Assembly: GCA_965644265.1 (NCBI GenBank)
Contig: OZ286468.1
Location: forward strand, 50,592,001-50,656,000
From: Glycera tridactyla
Lineage: Eukaryota
Direction of reading: 5' to 3'
DNA length: 64,000 bases
Shown here piece after piece: positions 39,101-50,429 of this stretch. The notes under the pieces were generated by a model, which saw nothing but the letters and a program-made list of their open reading frames with translations, ran no database searches and was not told the origin of the DNA. A program made the position numbers and the translations under genes. Position 1 is the first letter of the stretch, and every line of letters starts with the position of its first letter.

Positions 39101-40414
39101 TCCCGCCAGAGGGGCGATCACTATCTGCAACTCTGCTTACCTATCCAGTTTCGCGGCCACGTAATAGACGTACATCACGATAGTCTAATGGGATGCCATA
39201 GAGGCGCCCTGAAACTGTTAATGAGCCTACGAAATAAGTATTATTGGCCAAAGATGACTGCTGATGTGAAAGCATACGTACAGAGTTGTTTGACATGTGG
39301 AAGGGGTAAGAGACCTTATAATTCGTATAAGGCCCCATTGGAATTGCGCCAAATATTTCCTATTTGGTATCATGTCCATATGGACGTCCTGTCCCTTCCA
39401 GCAGACCCCTATACAGGACATACTAAATTGCTGGTGATGATAGACTCATTTTCATCTTATGTAAAATTGGCGGCGGTACCAAATGAGAAAGCAGAAACGT
39501 TAGCAAAGGCGTTCTTCAGAGAGTGGATATGTCGGCATGGTTGCCCAGTCATATTAACGACAGATAGGCACCAAAGTTTCAGAAGTATTCTTATGAAGAC
39601 CTTAGCATCACTCTTAGGATACAAGCGCATTTTTACGAGTAGTCATAGGCCTGAATCTAACGCAAAAGTGGAGAGAGTGAATAGTTCGATATTAGCAATG
39701 ATGAGAATGTTGGTTAGCAAGACCAAAGAATGGGTTCAATATCTGCCAGTAGTTAGGTTGAACCTAAACACTTCAACCTCTCAGACTTCAGGGTATACCC
39801 CTATGTTTTTGGCTACAGGGGTGGATACCTCGGTTGGGGAATATTGTCATTTGAGAGATCCAGAGATGTTGTCGGATAAGGATCAAGAGGTTCTGGAAGC
39901 TTTGTTACCAGAACTTACTTATCATCGAGAAATGGCCCGAAAGAACATAGAAATTTCTGCAAAGAGATATAAGGAGGTATATGAGAAACGATACCAAGTG
40001 GGTCAGATGCCTTTCAAAATCGGTGATCTTGTCTGGATGAAAACAGCCAGACCAGCGGGACAAGCAGTAGGAAAAACAGATAACCAACGTTTGGGCCCAT
40101 ATCGTATCACCGATACTCTTGGTGGGGTTTTGTATAAATTACAAGACTCACACACAAATATGTCTCTGGGGTCTCTTATACATGGCAATAAATTATCGTT
40201 GTTCCGAGACGAAGACGATAGCAGAATAAGGAACCTTTCTAAGGAACCTCCTGCGAATCCTAACCCTAGAGTATATGCAGATCCGGCCAAAAGAAATAGA
40301 ACCCAGGTCAAACACATAGCAAAAACTGTCTCCAAACCAGCGAATGTACCTAGAGTGCGCTTAACCGGGCCGGTTACAAGAAGACAAGCTGCGTTGAGGA
40401 ATATCAAGATATAA
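36191..40414 (+). CDS. pol: pol polyprotein (protease, RT, RNase H, integrase)
   Basis: Open from the gag TGA. PR: VDTGA. RT: YRACIDYRALN, LDMLSGYYQI, LPFGL, FLDD. RH: TDAS, KEAF, TTDN, DALSR. IN: HHCC (HHDSLMGCH...CLTC), HMDV...TTD-35-E, GPY. Confidence 0.97.
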   Translation, partial: WSTFTPPKTKTGDPSISFNDDVRLSLNLDGSFIRVMHNGMVARAPVDTGATASLISKNQWEQFNLESYLPIDGDKFLKLADASGKQIPILGQVEIPFEIAGREISVSLMVAEGLPVSMILGMEFLKNHRAIIDLEQGIVSFEGVPLIATIMPHIPIDRAIDVISTDHITIPPHTFMTVRLQVANKYWLSALFSSGYTGESDVESVQGFVVPSNNADIPVNLQLDPCLVTISKSGSLVVKVANSGDKPLEVKPSMTQARLTLDDDIEIIEASNVGGEVMAIMQMITSSQQTTVTVPPNYFNEEAFKENVLGLELRGDRVFEEIDWHEILDLSDCNKEQRRQLVDLLNANRDIFATSTEQLGKVTCVEHEINLEPDAKIVRQRPYRLSPEKQESLDKQIQELLAAKVIVESDSSWQSPVVMVKKKNHAPDGSVLYRACIDYRALNAMTQKEAGYFVMPTFDDIHESIARQAPRWMSSLDMLSGYYQIAMEKNSQDCTTFTTGKGSYKFLRLPFGLSLAPFTYSRAMSAALSRLGQTYVWNFLDDVFVASRTFKDHLVHLARVFNQFRQYGFTVHPRKCDFARKKLKFLGHIWTEKGLEPDPEKVKAIQKFPAPTNVTEVRRWLGLTGYYRKFIKNYAEIAEPITNLTRKDTPFLWDRKCQAAMDTLKTELLKNAVLHYPRLDREFFLTTDASKHSVSSILSQKDDDDVLRPVAFFSKKLNEQQRVWDINSKEAFSLILSIRLYRHLLGRQKINVTTDNLTARYLKNLRTSSAPKLLRWALEIQGLNIEIKHAPGKTIEAVDALSRIPEEKSIKTNYTKRDLGTPLDETIVMFVRTIGGDMPRAKTISQIANETRHTSDHRDAYTKQEVETSQKEAIVADENDNAQQDGESDEEVHAFLGPRLLEEQLKQFKADLHLVRDMQQESPDFKEMYYYLKFGTLPKESEKMKVVLRDHQHYILGAEDLLYRIFSTPGSRQRGDHYLQLCLPIQFRGHVIDVHHDSLMGCHRGALKLLMSLRNKYYWPKMTADVKAYVQSCLTCGRGKRPYNSYKAPLELRQIFPIWYHVHMDVLSLPADPYTGHTKLLVMIDSFSSYVKLAAVPNEKAETLAKAFFREWICRHGCPVILTTDRHQSFRSILMKTLASLLGYKRIFTSSHRPESNAKVERVNSSILAMMRMLVSKTKEWVQYLPVVRLNLNTSTSQTSGYTPMFLATGVDTSVGEYCHLRDPEMLSDKDQEVLEALLPELTYHREMARKNIEISAKRYKEVYEKRYQVGQMPFKIGDLVWMKTARPAGQAVGKTDNQRLGPYRITDTLGGVLYKLQDSHTNMSLGSLIHGNKLSLFRDEDDSRIRNLSKEPPANPNPRVYADPAKRNRTQVKHIAKTVSKPANVPRVRLTGPVTRRQAALRNIKI

Positions 40415-41141: not shown

Positions 41142-41819
41142 TTACTCCTCAGATGGGGGTATCTCTCCTTCTTCTAGGCTGGGGAGAGATATGTTAGAGT
41201 CATCATCTTCCATTAGTAGAGGCATTGGAGGATCATGTCCCCAGGCTGGTGGGGGGAAGTTGGGCGAATGTGGCAAGGAATCGATACTAGGAGCAGGTGA
41301 CATATGTCCAGGGGACGGAGTATCTAGCATTGGAGGAGGATCGATGGTGATATCTGAAAAGGGTGATCCTTCTTCGGATCTCGGTTGAGCTGCTCTAGAA
41401 GAGGCAACGGATAACCTTCGAGGTCTGACGGTAATGGAAGACCTGGAGGGAGGAGTATCCGTTCTCCCGGGAGCGGGAGGCATCTCAGTCGAAGGTATCT
41501 CAGACAGTAGAGATATCACTCTTTGCAGATCTCTATGTTCCTCATAACGAAGAGGCACATCAAGAATCCTAGTGGTCGTTAGCAAGTGGTCTCCCAGTGA
41601 CCATAGAGTTGAGTGAATGGTATGATGAGGAGGCTGGGACTGATTATAAATGCTATGTCCCATAGGTGGTGCCCCTGATCCTTGTTGATTTAGGATCGCG
41701 ATGGTGATATCTGTCTCTGCCAGTACATCAATGCGGGAGATGCCATGATGGGTATCAAGATCCTGTAGGATGTAAACCAGACGATCCAGAATCGATTCCC
41801 GCGGTATCGCTTGCTCCAT
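41142..41819 (-). CDS. Antisense accessory ORF, 225 aa, unknown function
   Basis: ATG-initiated (ACTATGG) and confined to the pol-env spacer. The N-half looks helical; the C-half is Pro/Ser-rich and acidic. Confidence 0.6.
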   Translation of the reverse strand: MEQAIPRESILDRLVYILQDLDTHHGISRIDVLAETDITIAILNQQGSGAPPMGHSIYNQSQPPHHTIHSTLWSLGDHLLTTTRILDVPLRYEEHRDLQRVISLLSEIPSTEMPPAPGRTDTPPSRSSITVRPRRLSVASSRAAQPRSEEGSPFSDITIDPPPMLDTPSPGHMSPAPSIDSLPHSPNFPPPAWGHDPPMPLLMEDDDSNISLPSLEEGEIPPSEE

Positions 41820-42060: not shown

Positions 42061-45000
42061 ATGGCGCTGGTTTGGATAGTCACCCTTATGGCCCTATCCA
42101 ATTTGGATATTTCGAATATCAAAATGGAAGTTGATGGGGTTCTAGATACAGTAAGTAGACCTAATTATGGTGTGAGTTTTCAACCTTTGAAAACCTTATA
42201 TCCAGCTTCTTCTAGTTGGACACATATCTTTCGAGTAGATATACCTCCTGAAGTTAGCAGACAGCTATTCAGAGATGTAGAAACGACATGCTCGGACCAA
42301 CACTGTACTGATAACCACTCTTTAGATAGATTTCTAAGAAGATTTCAGCGCCAAATGGTAAGAGATGCGAACAAAGTTCGAACCGCCATTTTGGACCTTA
42401 CTTCTCAGAATCTGACTAACGATAATAGTAGGAATAAGCGTGAAGTCACAGCTTCGTATGTGAACTGGAGTAGCTATGGGCGTTATACTCAGACCTATCA
42501 GGGTTATGCAGTCAACTATCATGCGTGTATGAAAAAGAATATAAATGATATCGATGAAGATATCATAACTCCTGGCACTCAAAAACGTCTGGTCTGTTCC
42601 AGACGAGCTGCCAGAGATGCATGTGAAAATAATAGACCTGATTGTATAAAGGAATTTGATAGAAAGTGTCCAGATCCACAATGTTCGTCCTTAATGGACA
42701 AGTGGGGACAGGGGAAACGCACCAGACGCTCTGTCCAGGATAGGAAAGCCCAACGAGCCCCAGAACCACCAATTCTGGGAAATATCACCAAAAAGGACTT
42801 ATTTGAGGTCAAAAATATTTTGGATCATAAATTAGCCCAATATAACCATTATTTAGAATTAGCGGTACAAGTAGATGTACAACTGGGTGAAATGAGTGAA
42901 ATGATTCAAGAGTACTTACCTATAGTGAAGAGTAATGACAGGGTGAAGAGATGGAATCCGTTTGCTTGGATAGGGAAACACGTGTTCGGACTGTCTACCA
43001 ACGAGGATGTTGAGAGACTGGCTAGGGTGGTGAAGTTTGCTACGGACCAGCAACTCACAGAGGCAAGGCGTTTCACTAAATTCCAAAGTGAAACTGCTTC
43101 ATTTATGGATGTTTTATCCCAACGATTTACCAACGTGGCAGGGACCATTTCAGCACTGCAAACGGAGTTGCAGGGACAGCTGCAGGACCTGTCCCATCAC
43201 GTGGATGACCGCCTCTGGAGGGTGATGCAGTACAGCATTAGTTCCAGTTCAGTGCTTGCAAGCATGATAGAAAAAATGCAAACACTGAGTCCCCAGATCG
43301 ACCACCTAATGTCAGCAGTAAATGATTTAGTACAAGGAAAGTTAAGTCCTTATCTAGTGAACCATACAGTCCTGACAGATACTATCTCGATCCTGCAAGA
43401 GCAAATGAGACGAGACTATCCATATTTTCATCTCACGGAGTTATCTCCACAGTTTTATTATCGATATGGTCGAGTGAATTATTTCCGGACCAATGAGGAA
43501 TATTTGATGGTATCTTTAGATTTTCCATTGTCAGCATTGACAAAGGACTTTAGGCTGTATTCAGTGACCATCCACAATACTCCCATTACTGATGATTCTA
43601 CTCAGACTAGTCGTCTAAAAACCCCTGTCGAATACTTTGGAGTATCTGATGATAGTATGAATTACATTGAAATGACTCATAAAGAGTTAGCTAGGTGTGA
43701 TGATACGACTGCCTTCAGATGCTCATCATCTATGAAAATATTTGATATGGACAAACCAACCTGTATGGCAGCCATTTTTCAAGATGATTCCAGTTTAGTA
43801 AAGGAACTATGTGGTTTCAGATTTGAGAAAACTGAGCCTGTAGTAGACTTGGTAGATGTTGGAAACGGTGAGGTGTTGGTACATAACGCTGAGAGTATCT
43901 TTCAACATTGTGGGGCGGAGTTGCCCCGGCAACGAGAAGGATGCGTATACTGCCAAATGGAATTACCATGCGGTTGTACGATTCATATATCTAATAAGAT
44001 CTCAGCAGCAGCCTTACCGGCTCGTATAAATAACTGTGTGAGGAAATCATCTGGGCTTACTATCGTACATCCAATCAATCTTGCTGCCTTATCACATATT
44101 TATGATTTAAAGAATATTGAAGAGGTGAATGGCGAGACCCTGTATAGTGAGAAGTGGCTACCGAAATTACCAGAAATCAAAGTAAGTAAGGACTTTGAAT
44201 TGAATTTGAATCGAGATTACAATTATTCAATGCAATTGGCCTCTGTGATGAAACGGGCTAAGGAAGGGCTGGATGTTGATCCTATCAAGCAAGTTGCCGC
44301 TAGTACGTGGGATCTGGATTCAGCTGATGAGTTCTTCACACTTTCGAATGTGTTAGGATTGCTCAGTATTCTGGTAGCCATTGCCTCCATGGGTCTGGCC
44401 ATTTACACAAGATGGTCATATCGTCTGCTAGAAAAGACGATGAGTGCATATACGTTAGCCGGTGTGTTACAACCTACAACTGTAGATGGGCTGGAGGACC
44501 TCCCTAGGGACGTCTATGAACGTCTATTAGGACGGGCCATTCCAACCACTTCAAAAAGTAGGATCCCTCATATTGATGGTTTCCAAGTAGATACCTTTGC
44601 TCAGGACATGTGTTACGAAGGTAAGCATGTCGGGGTAGTAGGTGTATTGGCGCTTCTGGCCGTGGTGGGACTATTGGTCATAATAGGCTATTTAGCGTAC
44701 ACGATGTATGCTCACCGCTGCCGGACAAGAAGTAAGCTGATCATAGAGTTAGGAAACCTAGTAGAATACCAGGATATAACTATCATGAAACTTCCTGGAT
44801 CCATGTCAAATTATCATTTGATGGGACTAGGTGTCCCGGGGCCTTATCAGGTCAAGGACTTCCGATGCAGGTCATATTTGACTGCCTCATGGAGAGGTTT
44901 GATTGTAGGGAACAGAATGGGTAATACACCTTTACCCATGCCTGAACAATTGAGACTACTTCCATGGGAGGCTCTGAAAGTCAAACGTATTCTACAAGGT

Positions 45001-45279
45001 CGCTTTACTGCTGTATTTAAGATTGAGATGGGATGTAAGTTCTATATCATTCCAAGAATCTGCCAACCGGATTGTGACGGTTGGGCATGTAAGGGGATAT
45101 ACAACCCAGAGATAACCCCTAATATACTATACCCTGCTATGGACCAGACCCCTAAGAATGCTATTGATAGTGCAAACATTCCTCTACTAGCCTCAGCTCC
45201 TGGAAATGGGATTGACAAATATGAGTTGCAAAACGATGGTAGGAAAGTGAATTCTCAAAGTGAGATCACTAGAATGTAA
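42061..45279 (+). CDS. env: env-like class I fusion glycoprotein (baculovirus F/errantivirus Env-like), 1072 aa
   Basis: Hydrophobic N-terminus. RVKR followed by fusion-peptide-like WNPFAWIGKHVFGLSTNED. Heptad segment, GKLSPYLV motif, Cys-rich ectodomain and N-glycosylation sequons. TM segments at aa ~764-782 and ~857-883. Confidence 0.88.
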   Translation: MALVWIVTLMALSNLDISNIKMEVDGVLDTVSRPNYGVSFQPLKTLYPASSSWTHIFRVDIPPEVSRQLFRDVETTCSDQHCTDNHSLDRFLRRFQRQMVRDANKVRTAILDLTSQNLTNDNSRNKREVTASYVNWSSYGRYTQTYQGYAVNYHACMKKNINDIDEDIITPGTQKRLVCSRRAARDACENNRPDCIKEFDRKCPDPQCSSLMDKWGQGKRTRRSVQDRKAQRAPEPPILGNITKKDLFEVKNILDHKLAQYNHYLELAVQVDVQLGEMSEMIQEYLPIVKSNDRVKRWNPFAWIGKHVFGLSTNEDVERLARVVKFATDQQLTEARRFTKFQSETASFMDVLSQRFTNVAGTISALQTELQGQLQDLSHHVDDRLWRVMQYSISSSSVLASMIEKMQTLSPQIDHLMSAVNDLVQGKLSPYLVNHTVLTDTISILQEQMRRDYPYFHLTELSPQFYYRYGRVNYFRTNEEYLMVSLDFPLSALTKDFRLYSVTIHNTPITDDSTQTSRLKTPVEYFGVSDDSMNYIEMTHKELARCDDTTAFRCSSSMKIFDMDKPTCMAAIFQDDSSLVKELCGFRFEKTEPVVDLVDVGNGEVLVHNAESIFQHCGAELPRQREGCVYCQMELPCGCTIHISNKISAAALPARINNCVRKSSGLTIVHPINLAALSHIYDLKNIEEVNGETLYSEKWLPKLPEIKVSKDFELNLNRDYNYSMQLASVMKRAKEGLDVDPIKQVAASTWDLDSADEFFTLSNVLGLLSILVAIASMGLAIYTRWSYRLLEKTMSAYTLAGVLQPTTVDGLEDLPRDVYERLLGRAIPTTSKSRIPHIDGFQVDTFAQDMCYEGKHVGVVGVLALLAVVGLLVIIGYLAYTMYAHRCRTRSKLIIELGNLVEYQDITIMKLPGSMSNYHLMGLGVPGPYQVKDFRCRSYLTASWRGLIVGNRMGNTPLPMPEQLRLLPWEALKVKRILQGRFTAVFKIEMGCKFYIIPRICQPDCDGWACKGIYNPEITPNILYPAMDQTPKNAIDSANIPLLASAPGNGIDKYELQNDGRKVNSQSEITRM

Positions 45280-47128
45280 TAGCGACTCACAAAACGTAAT
45301 ACGATTATACTTATGTCTCTTCTTTAAGTAATCCCGTCTCAGGAACTCTTATAGTTCGCAATAGAACCAATCTTGAGACCATGCGTAAGTGGGGAGACCT
45401 TATGAACGATGCAGATGATTGTTGACTCAGAATAAGAATATTCGACCTGTCTTCTTAGACTATGTCACCAAGGCCATGTACCCGACAATAATGGCGGAGC
45501 TTCGTATGTATGAGTGAGTCAGGGAGCCTTGCGTATTTTTGGCGGGAAAGTTTGAATGGGGAAACCAGCAGTATCAGTTATACGGAGCCCTGTTGTAAGC
45601 TACACCCCAGGACTTGATTTGAAGTTAGGTCATAAAGACCGTGGCTGTACTACTGATTCCCGTATTTGTGGCGAGAAAGGTGTATGGTACGATTGTGTGC
45701 GCAAATGGGAAGGATGTCCTTACCGCAATATGTCTTTTTCGACTTAACGTTTGTAGCACCCTATCAACCCTATTGTACCGAGGGAAATTTTTGATAGGGT
45801 ACTACATTGTAGTGAGGATTGATGTTATATTGTATTAGGGATGTGTTAGATATAGGTATCTTCTGGGTCTTTTATAAAATTGTTTTGAATCTATTTTTGC
45901 TATAAAAACTGTGAGGTGATACAAAGTGATAGACCTGTTGGTTTCATGATGTTTTCTTGGTGTGTACGGTTATTAACTGGTATGTTCATTTGCTTGAGTT
46001 CCAGGGACAGATGATGGACTGTATGTCAGGAGAACTACGATTCGGTCCCTGGACCTCGCAAATGGACGTGCTGGTGGTGCATATCGGGGTGACACATGGA
46101 TATTGGATACCAAAAATTTAGGATATCACTGTATCACCAGGAGATAAGAGCAGTGGGATAGTTCACCCTAGCTTAGCTGAGCAGAGACTAGTAGATAGGG
46201 AATCATGGGGAACTATTCCGGACGATGTATATATACTGCCTCGATGATTCTTGTATCGCGATACCTTGTCTGTATGAAACCCAGCCTAGGAGAGGCTGAA
46301 GATGGTGAACTCTAATGCAATCGCCATGAAAAACACTTGACTTTGACTGAATGGTCGGAATCTGACTATCAGTATGAATCATGGGTTTCCATGTGGGACC
46401 CCGGAGGAGATGATGTGTTGTATTGAGTCATTGTTGCTTAATTTCCCTGGACGGGTGTATGAACACATGCTAGGGGCATGGGTGTCTAATGGACACGCCT
46501 ATGGGCGTGAAGTGTAGACATAAACCGGTGGAAAGGACATGTTTATGAGAGATGTTGGAAATGGACCGTGTCGTCATAAAAAGGGGGCGTGGTCGACTTG
46601 TGACCTGTCTTCATTGTACTTGCCTGACGTGGCGATGCAGTTGATGTCTTGATTTGATGTAGTAAATGTTGTGATTTCTCTTATCGGTACGATTATCTTT
46701 CACTCGCTTTTTGTCTCTCTCTCTATTTCTGCGGTCTTTCTATTATTCTTGTTTCTACTTGGAAGGCCATTGGCATCTGTGTCACCTATCCTAACAAAAA
46801 CCCAGTTTGCGGTTTGATAACATTTCGATTACGTTGAGGTTGATATGCATGTTAGGGATGAATGGAGCTGTAGCCGGATACGCGATTCCTCGAGACTGCC
46901 AATCTTTTGGTTATTTCGTATCTAGTCTCTTAAATATGTATTTTGACCACACTATCGTTATGTCGATTGGAGGAAATCATATTTCTTTGGTTTTGATAGA
47001 GACGCAGAGCGTCTTCGAGATGTATATCTCATTTATGCCATGGGAAACCGACTGGAACGAAAAACAATCGCAGTTGAGGAATAACGCATCCCAGTGAGGG
47101 AATTAGGCGTTACTAATTCCAAAACCGC

Positions 47129-47729
47129 TCACGAGATGGCGCGACAGTTGAAAGGTCAACGTCAGGTCAACTCTGTGAAACCAGCATATAGTCATTTCAA
47201 TCGCAATTAAAAACTAGTTAGCGAGTCATATGAGAAACATAGGTACAAGATAGAGTAACCAAAATGCGTAGTTTTTCATGAAGAATACGTCGACTATGAT
47301 GAAACCCAGAACTGACGATGCTGAGTGTAGGGAAAAATCAGGATAGTGAAAAATCATTTTTGGGCATACGACCGGGGATAGGCTTGGAGTATCATAGTAT
47401 GAAGGTGGAGATTAAGCAGAGAAGGGTCATACATTCTGACCATGTATCATACTCCGGGCTAGAGATGCGTGTCAATGATTGCCATACACAATGAGTGTAC
47501 TGCACTCGTTTCTGGTGGCATTCTCCTCATCAATCTCTTCCATTAGTTCGGAGAATTGATGCGCCGGTGAAACCACCTTCTCTTCTTCCTCCTCCTTCTT
47601 CCTCCTTCTTCTCCTGGCCGGTTTTTACCGGCCAAATAAATCAAAAGAAACATGCAACCAAAAACCAAGCAATATCCTGTAAACCAAAGTTAGGCACGCC
47701 TAGTTCTGGGAAACCCCGCTAGATGGCGA
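47129..47729 (+). promoter_or_regulatory. Two CTCF-like motifs in the element's 3' region
   Basis: CCGCTAGATGGCGA at 47716-47729 is a close fit to the CTCF core. TCACGAGATGGCGC at 47129-47142 is a weaker fit. Confidence 0.4.
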
Positions 47730-48881
47730 ATAGATCTACGACGGCCATTTTTGTAGAATTCTCTGAAGATAGACTTTTAGTCAAGGTATAAAGAGGAATA
47801 TTTCTGTCAAAAATGGGCCGATTACTTTGAAACAAATATTAAAATTTGACATTTCGAAAGGGGAATCAGAAGAAATGAAGTAATAAGTATATTCTCTCTA
47901 AGGATCACCGAAAATACTTAGAATCGAGAATTTCCGGTGGATTGTCAAAACCCCAAATAGACGAAGGCTGAGTCTTATAAGGGTTGGAGAGGAAAGCAAC
48001 GGAGGCATACTTCCTGGGTATCAACCTCTGTAGTTTGCACAAGGGAGGAACCACCATGCTGGGGGGGATCCAGATTCCTTTCAGGTTGGTGGGGACCTTT
48101 CTTCACTACGGTACGGTTTGATGCTGACTCAGAGAGTGCTGGTGTCACAGCCTTGGAGACTCCTGGCTACCTGGTTGAACGTAGTTCGATTGGGTGGTGC
48201 ACAGGCTGACTCCTGGGTGTCTTTTTTGTAAAAAGGACAGTGCTTACCAGCGACTCCTGAAATTCAGTCCTTCGTCCACAGATCCCTGCTTTCCTCTTGC
48301 TTCCTTTCCCCCTCCTTCCTCTCCCCGGCCGATTTTTATCGGCCAAATAATCAATGAAAAATGCTCTAAGAGAGGGAGACCCATCGAGTCTCCCTCATAA
48401 GGCACTATCGGCAGCGGCAGAGCTGAATGGTATCAGTTCCGAATTCGCACACGGGGTGGCGTTGCGATTGGAGTCGATCTCGCCAAGTGACCTAGTTCTT
48501 CTGTACCAAACCGACTGGCATAATGGCTTTGCAATGTATAACTTCTTAAATCCGCAAGCCGGTCAGACGATTCCTGTATGAAAACTCGATAATAGTTGTG
48601 GTTGATGATTTTTGTATGTTGTTTGGATTGTTTGAGACCTTCAATCGCCAAAAATGGTGCAAGAAGTTGGGGGACCGGTAGTGCATGTCCCCGGCAATGG
48701 GTTTATAACCTATGCCTATGAAGGTTGAAGAGGGTTCCGGACTGGTCATACTTGTTTTACCAGTATCACTCTGTTTCATGAGAGTTGGATGGATGTTCAC
48801 CGTGGAAGTGTCGGTGAATGTCTCGTTCAGATTTACGAGAAACAGAGTGATACTCAACCCCTGGTTGGTTTTTACCAACCA
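47615..48881. other. Three homologous tetraloop hairpins
   Basis: TGGCCGGT-TTTT-ACCGGCCA (47615-47634), GGCCGAT-TTTT-ATCGGCC (48327-48344), TGGTTGGT-TTTT-ACCAACCA (48862-48881). Confidence 0.75.
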
Positions 48882-49563
48882 AAATGGCCAAAATAAATGC
48901 CTGGTAAATGTGGAGGAGACTTTCACCGACACTTCCACGCCAAGGCATCTAATGGTCTTAAGGGGGACAAAGAACCAAAAATGGAACTGTGTTATATCAT
49001 GTATGTAATAAGTTGTGCGAGCTTTGTTGGTTATTTTCGATGCGAAATGTCAAAAGGTTACGTTCGGCCTTGTCTGGATGAAGACCTGATTCGCCAGGCA
49101 AGAGCGGGATGAAAGCCAGAGACATATCTAGTTGGTATTAGAATTGTACAATACGAGATGTGTGAAGAAATAAGTAGATGCCGGTCTCCACTATGGAGGC
49201 GCGGACGTGTACGAAAGCATTCTCGAACTCATGCTGCGACTGACAGAGACGGCCGCTAGTAACAACCGGTCGAGCTATTTAGCGCAAGTAGCGCGAGAAA
49301 TGAGGGAAGCCAGTGGAAGCCGTTGGGCGCGAAATTCGAAAGTCGGATTGGGAGACAATAACTCCTCGTGGTGACCCTGCTTCACTAGCCATTTGGTTCG
49401 GTCAGGGGCGCTCAGTAAGTCTGCGACTAGTCAGAAATAACATCATTTTTCGAGGACCTCTCTATACGATTGGATCCACTTTTAATGACTGGTTGTAGAT
49501 GGCTGGACGTCTTTGGCTGGATTGGCTGGATGGGACCTGGAAGCTACGAGGACGTTAGCTTCT

Positions 49564-49575
49564 AAAGAAGAGATG
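49564..49575 (+). promoter_or_regulatory. Polypurine tract
   Basis: AAAGAAGAGATG lies immediately upstream of the 3' LTR. Confidence 0.75.
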
Positions 49576-50376
49576 TATATCTCAAATCGATTATATTAAC
49601 TATAACTGAACTCGTGAAAGTCACATCTGTGTCGCACGAGTAAGCCATTTTATGACCCCATAAATTAGGGCGCTTGACGCCTCGGGCTATAAAAATGGAA
49701 TGAAGGACAGATAATCTGATCCAGGGGATAAGAAGCCCCGTCTCCTGTATTAGCCATGAGCCATTAACTTTTACTGCCCCTCGCTCTTGGGATTACTCAC
49801 GGCCATTACTCTGAGTAATGGGACCCAAGAAGCGAGCCACTTGGATTGACCCTCGCCTTAAGGCAAAGATATCTTAATGGAAAATTCTCATGAAAGACAT
49901 GAATGTCAGATAGCACTGAGTTATGAGGGGTGAGCTAGTGCGAACCCCGCTTTTCTAGATCCATGTGCATCATAAAAATACCATAAAATAACCATAAAGT
50001 GCATGAGCGTGTAATCCCATGGTAATGACTTGTGAGCCTGAAACATATAAATACGTGGGAGAAGGAAGCACCGTCAGACCATTCCTTGAGCTGGGTCCAC
50101 GCTGGTCGAGTGTGCACTTCATGGGCTGACGGACTTCTTTCCCCACAGTATTACATCGTAGTATTTATACTATGTCTGCCTGATGTATACTGGGGAATAA
50201 ATGTTAAACTGGAACTCCACGTCGTTGACTTATTTGTGGCAACCCCTGCTACTGGTCACAACGAGAGAAGGGATCCCACCATCTCACACTGACATTGTAA
50301 AGCCAAGCGACATCACGCAGAAGGAACGACATCTTCAAGCGACATCCCTCCTATAGTCGAATGAATCTTTGATATA
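49576..50376 (+). repeat. 3' LTR
   Basis: Direct repeat of the 5' LTR (offset 16454). AATAAA at 50196-50201. Confidence 0.95.
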
Positions 50377-50429
50377 TTGTACATATGTTTTTCCTGTCAC
50401 ACAAATGAAGTTACAGTCTCAAAGTTTCA

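Follow-up and report, generated by a model that had tools for sequence, protein, structure and literature searches.

Three conserved furin-type motifs around a cysteine module and a helical spacer in the F-type Env of a Glycera tridactyla LTR element

RESULTS

Three furin-type motifs and a two-part insert in the Env of an LTR element

The window analyzed in this work is a stretch of 64,000 nucleotides from the genome of Glycera tridactyla (GenBank assembly GCA_965644265.1, contig OZ286468.1, positions 50,592,001 to 50,656,000 of the forward strand). Positions are counted from its first letter, and features lie on the plus strand unless stated. It holds a 17.3-kb long terminal repeat (LTR) element of the gag-pol-env type, whose env open reading frame (ORF; 42061..45279) encodes an F-type (class I) fusion protein precursor of 1072 amino acids (aa), as identified from the ORF and from profile and structure matches. 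We found that this Env carries three furin-type motifs around a Cys-rich module and a helical spacer. This three-site layout is real, selected, and absent from the literature that we reached, the figure supplements of the errantivirus Env survey (PMC13524379) lying outside that view.

With a full site defined as R-x-[KR]-R, exactly three occur in the entire protein, where an initial annotation of the window had placed them. Site 1 (RNKR followed by EV, aa 124 to 127; 42430..42441) stands at the single-site position of the short relatives described below. Site 2 ((K)RTRR followed by SV, with RTRR at aa 220 to 223 and K219 before it; 42718..42729) closes the module, a predicted three-helix, disulfide-bonded domain at aa 128 to 223 (42442..42729). 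Its 96 aa contain exactly six Cys residues (156, 179, 188, 195, 203, and 208), as the annotation had counted. Site 3 (RVKR, aa 294 to 297; 42940..42951) ends the Cys-free, 74-aa helical spacer (aa 224 to 297; 42730..42951). A hydrophobic stretch, WNPFAWIG, directly follows site 3 only, which bears out the claim that the last site alone precedes a fusion-peptide-like segment. The candidate fusion peptide at F1's N terminus (42952..43005) includes F309 and G310, each at least 90% conserved among 129 homologues. As read from this arrangement, the excisable region would be the whole 170-aa insert in two pieces, the module and the spacer.

When aa 21 to 297 were shuffled, three or more motifs arose in 0.47% of 10,000 trials; conservation across families is a stronger test of the layout than this. 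The initial annotation had also seen a similar helix-then-RxKR block on each flank of the module. It stands as a pattern, with predicted helices at aa 85 to 114 and 245 to 285 in a low-confidence model, but not as a likeness of sequence, since family profiles of the two helices fail to align (hhalign probability, 0.09%).

Conservation of the layout across Env families

Thirteen Env families, labelled A to M, were sampled non-exhaustively by searches of the 2.04-Gb host genome. The three sites around a module are kept in 12 of the 13, with modules of 63 to 118 aa and spacers of 71 to 81 aa; family C has two sites and the spacer only. Mean identity across ten families is 24% in the module, 21% in the spacer, and 61% in the first 250 aa of F1, a figure pulled down by a broken K copy. 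Despite this divergence, four Cys residues are invariant in 19 aligned modules and form a frame common to the families. The Cys count per family is 4, 6, or 8, always even, the middle pair being jointly absent in F and M and an extra pair present in J. The number of N-glycan sequons in the module varies by family from 0 to 7.

Site 2 is a full motif in all 12 module families, 9 to 26 residues past the last Cys, and is directly followed by [SDE][VILA] in 12/12, versus a background of 5.5%. In good furin substrates, Ser is the commonest residue at P1' and Val or Ala at P2' (PMC3545927). Eleven of the 12 module families have a full site 1; a full site 3 is present in 11 of the 12 family representatives as well as in two other M copies. 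No additional R-x-[KR]-R motif occurs in the 1,876 aa of inserts. In the alignment with homologous Envs, the module region was not encountered without flanking basic sites.

Selection within families

For family A, we compared the 54 best-scoring of about 77 matches; decayed and truncated copies were omitted, which biases the sample toward intact ones. Full motifs are present in 52/54 (site 1), 48/54 (site 2), and 53/54 (site 3) copies, and each Cys of the module is retained by at least 53 of them. The ratio of nonsynonymous to synonymous changes (dN/dS), calculated from variants common to at least three copies, is 0.04 in the module, compared with 0.10 in the spacer, 0.05 in F2, and 0.03 in the F1 core; in the module, such variants comprise 53 synonymous and 9 nonsynonymous changes. 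Changes in the Arg codons of these first two sites are mostly synonymous. The module of family A is under purifying selection, and selection in family B is similar (30 of at least 150 copies). From these data, and from the retention in 12 of 13 families, we concluded that selection conserves both the sites and the Cys module.

Family J (33 of at least 150 copies) gave a module dN/dS of 0.49 from small numbers. Likewise on small numbers, its module has an excess of shared changes (8 nonsynonymous and 4 synonymous versus 5 and 37; P = 0.0004). This excess (L067, L069, and L165) is a possible sign of diversifying selection.

Relatives outside the genome and the history of the insert

A profile built from nine relatives matched 2,207 proteins at an E value of 0.001 or better, and the best 150 of these were taken as outside relatives. 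The N-terminal anchor is covered by 122 of them; the other 28 were dropped. In 110 of the 122, forming a short class, the fusion peptide lies a median of 98 aa from the anchor, and 105 of the 110 have at most one full motif, in agreement with the initial view that one furin site is typical of related Envs. In the window Env, site 1 ends 92 aa from the anchor and the fusion peptide anchor lies at 267. Furthermore, a profile match (probability, 80 to 85%; E value, about 1e-5) links the window helix at aa 85 to 114 to the F2 helix in 98 short relatives. Given this match and the fusion-peptide distance in the short relatives, site 1 is the ancestral site position, and aa 128 to 297 have been inserted between that helix and the fusion peptide. 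Because the insert lies there, the earlier comparison with the F protein of respiratory syncytial virus (RSV) is apt. Since the fusion peptide of the short relatives follows the site 1 position, the whole insert fills the slot of RSV p27 and of the foamy-virus receptor-binding domain (RBD).

Only 12 of the 122 outside relatives are long, and none has the Cys pattern of the module. Ten of the 12 group with the 13 host families as a single clade (FastTree, 0.975; IQ-TREE quick, 96) in a midpoint-rooted tree with two long branches. The 12 module families form a clade (support, 100) whose nearest kin are two-site proteins. A shorter spacer with two sites occurs in relatives that lack the module, family C and P0001, and further spacer-only relatives are P0016 and P0018. 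Since it is common to relatives without the Cys module, the helical spacer with its two sites is likely the older part of the insert, and the simplest reading of the order is that the two sites came first and the module later. The closest module-free relatives, L037 (family C) and P0001, have instead an expanded four-Cys F2 loop, within which family C carries another RVRR motif.

A separate outside sister group (P0015, P0017, P0021, P0023, P0024, P0028, P0079, and P0092) has long inserts made of a two-Cys helical segment and a spacer. P0017 and P0021 have three full motifs, most others two full motifs and a weaker one, and P0079 is a fragment. A single clade for both three-site groups was rejected by the approximately unbiased test (P = 0.00095), which was run on a quick tree with long branches and on a group named after the first tree was seen. 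With the two groups not forming one clade, the third site would have arisen twice or been lost more than once. Homology between the module and the two-Cys inserts was not detected (probability, 0.12%). The retroelement lineage presents a graded series: one site, two sites plus the helical spacer, and three sites plus a folded cassette.

Fold and origin of the module

Modeled alone, the module gave three helices with a predicted local distance difference test (pLDDT) score of 61 (core, 72 to 81). No usable match to it was obtained in the ESM Atlas, among PDB sequences (best E value, 0.39), or among proteins of 34 to 207 aa searched for a stand-alone homologue, and no Pfam family reached the cutoff. 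Foldseek returned nothing at an E value of 0.001 against PDB and viral structures, and the best VIA-align match (Z score, 5.4) reflects generic helices. When the host genome was searched for a donor, the matches were filled by element copies and so bear little on a cellular source. The structure and profile checks of the module alone yielded the three-helix model and no family or fold match; the proposal that it is a captured domain is neither borne out nor contradicted by these searches, in which no donor, family, or fold emerged. No RSV entry appeared among the PDB search matches of the module and of the family profile, and the likeness to p27 is one of analogy; the foamy-virus RBD was not among the PDB sequence matches of the module, nor among the Foldseek-PDB or VIA-align fold matches of its model with a pLDDT of 61.

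An origin of the module by duplication of F2 was not supported (probability, 0.1 to 0.3%). Between the helix of the spacer and the ancestral F2 helix there is a weak resemblance (probability, 16 to 24%; E value, about 1e-3; controls, 0.3 to 1.7%), and the spacer does not resemble the first helix of the window families themselves.

Assignment and other features of the Env

In the Pfam search of the window Env, nothing scored above the cutoff, Baculo_F (PF12259) included. That cutoff was passed by 15 of 40 scanned homologues, and the link between the Env and Baculo_F runs through these relatives. A family profile of 129 sequences matches PDB entries 9w4c and 9w4d, annotated as "fusion protein" (E value, 1e-21), and also coronavirus S2. 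The whole-protein model, made as a monomer, is poor (pLDDT, 45; template modeling [TM] score, about 0.1). In Foldseek it retrieved glycoproteins of chu-like viruses, an abalone herpesvirus protein, a torovirus spike, and the F proteins of paramyxoviruses and baculoviruses, the top matches having E values of 7e-16 to 7e-5. The features of class I proteins are present: a basic site, a fusion peptide, a long heptad helix, and a transmembrane anchor. The F2-like subunit (42145..42429) comprises a conserved N-terminal strand, a C77-x4-C82 loop, and the helix at aa 85 to 114, the presumed equivalent of heptad repeat C (HRC). By hydropathy, a first transmembrane helix, probably the F1 anchor, lies at 44341..44415.

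Env continues beyond this helix. Its aa 786 to 993 (44416-45039) show a stretch resembling a signal peptide (basic, hydrophobic, A/G-x-A/G), then a short ectodomain, a second transmembrane helix, and a beta domain, the last two at 44617..45039 with the signal-peptide-like stretch before them, as judged from hydropathy, the model, the homologue alignment, and a structural search. When the first 60 rows of the homologue alignment were inspected by eye, most showed this pattern, but P0021, P0023, P0024, and P0028 did not. The best structural matches of the beta domain are matrix proteins of mononegaviruses: Borna virus M (Z score, 5.5; root mean square deviation, 3.7; 100 residues aligned), measles virus M (5.2), Ebola virus VP40 (4.5), Marburg virus VP40 (4.4), and human metapneumovirus M (4.0). 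These Z scores are under the trust level of the tool, and all five matrix proteins span the same range. As a separate and weaker lead, a membrane-anchored, matrix-like protein may form part of an Env polyprotein.

The element and its other genes

The element is bounded by a 5' LTR (33122..33924, ends approximate) and its paired 3' LTR (49576..50378), identical at 797 of 803 aligned bases (99%). Two LTRs flanking gag, pol, and env and a pol of Ty3/gypsy order, errantivirus-type features, are both present. The pol gene (36296..40414) encodes protease, reverse transcriptase, RNase H, and integrase, as assigned by Pfam, and lies in the same frame as gag, after stop codons. The gag gene (34492..36190) was matched in two pieces, Retrotrans_gag (below the cutoff) and zf-CCHC, and contains a premature stop and a frameshift; it is thus broken in the window copy (34492-36295) despite the LTR identity and the open pol and env. 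Between pol and env, an antisense accessory ORF of 225 aa (41142..41819, minus strand), which has no assigned function and no Pfam match, is kept open in family A, for at least 227 aa in 28 of 29 other copies; look-alikes were spotted by eye in families B and J. Downstream of env, the 4.3 kb up to the 3' LTR (45280-49575) contain no ORF of more than 167 aa. No separate attachment gene was recognized among the ORFs of the element, and no match to viral contigs was found; among the sequencing runs searched, no RNA data set holding it was listed. Families B and J have undergone large recent bursts of env-bearing elements, each with at least 150 copies at 97 to 100% identity.

DISCUSSION

On the strength of their conservation, cleavage at all three motifs is quite probable. 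A furin-like convertase of the host would cut them in the secretory pathway, giving four pieces: F2, the Cys module, the helical spacer, and F1. The disulfides of the module would be intramolecular only, and hence it would have no covalent tether. The spacer would cap the fusion peptide, as p27 does. The foamy-virus RBD occupies the same slot, and by analogy the module would bind a receptor or attachment factor, being held noncovalently and then shed so that fusion can proceed. We tentatively favor a separately folded host-recognition cap over the alternatives of a released effector, a discarded pro-domain, and uncut linkers, in that order. We count in its favor the persistence of three sites in 12 of 13 families at a module identity of about 24% (61% in F1), the full site 2 with its [SDE][VILA] context in 12/12 families, the purifying selection in family A, the even Cys counts, the placement of the foamy-virus RBD, the lack of a recognized separate attachment gene, the 0 to 7 sequons, and the F2 loop of family C and P0001.

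Several observations weigh against a recognition cap. Variability between families is not specific to the module, the spacer being equally variable (21%), and between families A and B identity is in fact lower in the spacer (33%) than in the module (60%). Families A and B show no sign of diversifying selection. Odd Cys counts occur in one decayed K copy and in some other single copies. Six of the 54 family-A copies have lost site 2, and site 1 of family J is only a minimal R-x-x-R, albeit invariant in 33/33 copies. Both structure models are weak (pLDDT of 45 for the whole protein and 61 for the module). Finally, the foamy-virus RBD is covalently continuous with the N-terminal subunit, whereas the flanking motifs here would free the module, and cutting it loose is odd for a domain that needs to stay on the particle.

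In another reading, after cleavage at all three sites, the module would simply be released as a soluble protein acting on the host, as a decoy or as an immune or signaling modulator. We give this alternative a smaller but appreciable chance. Conserved motifs on both sides and an even Cys count fit it, since nothing covalent would then hold the module, and a secreted peptide could well have its size and disulfide content. There is also a precedent, in that bovine RSV F releases virokinin from its excised segment (PMC7552771). On the other hand, the module searches found no likeness to a host peptide family or fold, and twelve very different sequences speak against mimicry of a single host ligand.

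Somewhat less probable is that the 170-aa insert serves as a pro-domain without a host target, aiding folding or blocking fusion by the trimer until all cuts are made, and is then discarded. RSV p27 caps the fusion peptide and hinders trimer assembly until removed (PMC10320223, PMC11468914), and the two-site helical spacer is common to the wider clade. However, family C, P0001, P0016, and P0018 manage without the module, and 110 relatives without either module or spacer; nor would a pro-domain explain why surface residues of the module are strongly constrained within a family yet divergent between families. Least probable is efficient cleavage at site 3 only, with the module kept covalently within a long F2 and sites 1 and 2 as duplication leftovers or partly cut linkers: a motif match is no proof of cleavage (PMC3281273), p27 removal is incomplete in some cells for RSV (PMC10320223), and the resemblance of the spacer helix to the ancestral F2 helix (16 to 24%) means that extra sites could come from duplication, but leftovers would be expected to decay at 24% identity, while all 12 families retain site 2 with its P1'/P2' pattern and Arg varies synonymously within family A.

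Going beyond the recognition cap, we speculate, with less confidence than in the cap itself, that the slot between F2 and the fusion peptide is a cassette bay. Furin-excised, family-specific disulfide mini-proteins would there let a dozen coresident families engage the host differently, a second lineage would have its own three-site cassette, and Env would perhaps also deliver a membrane-anchored, matrix-like protein. To our knowledge, how invertebrate errantivirus Envs recognize cells is poorly known, and a domain of 63 to 118 aa in 12 natural versions offers a small, expressible handle on it.

Comparison with known systems

Among published proteins, the F-type Envs of errantiviruses surveyed by Chary and Hayashi (PMC13524379; Baculo_F, PF12259) share with the one described here a gag-pol-env LTR element, an F-like ectodomain, a furin site, a fusion peptide, and many near-identical copies. 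They differ in that the text of the survey gives one conserved furin site, versus three and a 170-aa insert here. Its main text, with the Env alignments placed in the figure supplements outside our view, does not contain the terms "second furin," "p27," "matrix," or "antisense," and no three-site errantivirus Env was described in the literature searched by title or start of abstract. The class I glycoproteins of chu-like viruses, abalone herpesvirus, and toroviruses (Viro3D clade IV; PMC12583693) are the top Foldseek matches and of similar length, a likeness that rests on the poor model with its TM score of about 0.1. According to the same source, long class I proteins have acquired regulatory domains that are shed.

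The RBD of foamy-virus Env is flanked by the HRC and by the furin site that precedes the fusion peptide (PMC11468914), so that it resembles the module in being inserted between that helix and that site of an F-like fold in a reverse-transcribing element. That RBD is about 330 aa and covalently continuous, in contrast to a module of about 95 aa that is predicted to be helical and is bounded by motifs on both sides. Cleavage at two sites frees RSV F of p27, a segment that otherwise caps the fusion peptide and whose fate is still open (PMC10320223). Like RSV F, the Env described here carries at least two furin motifs in the stretch from F2 to the fusion peptide and would excise a segment. It is unlike RSV F in having three motifs and two predicted excisable pieces, of 96 and 74 aa, where RSV F has a single one of 27, and in that one piece is a predicted folded, Cys-rich domain. 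A 2024 structure paper regards two consecutive furin sites before the fusion peptide as unique to RSV F in comparison with paramyxovirus and foamy-virus proteins (PMC11468914). The retroelement series from one to three sites bears on this view, and the layout would extend the two-cut fusion protein of RSV.
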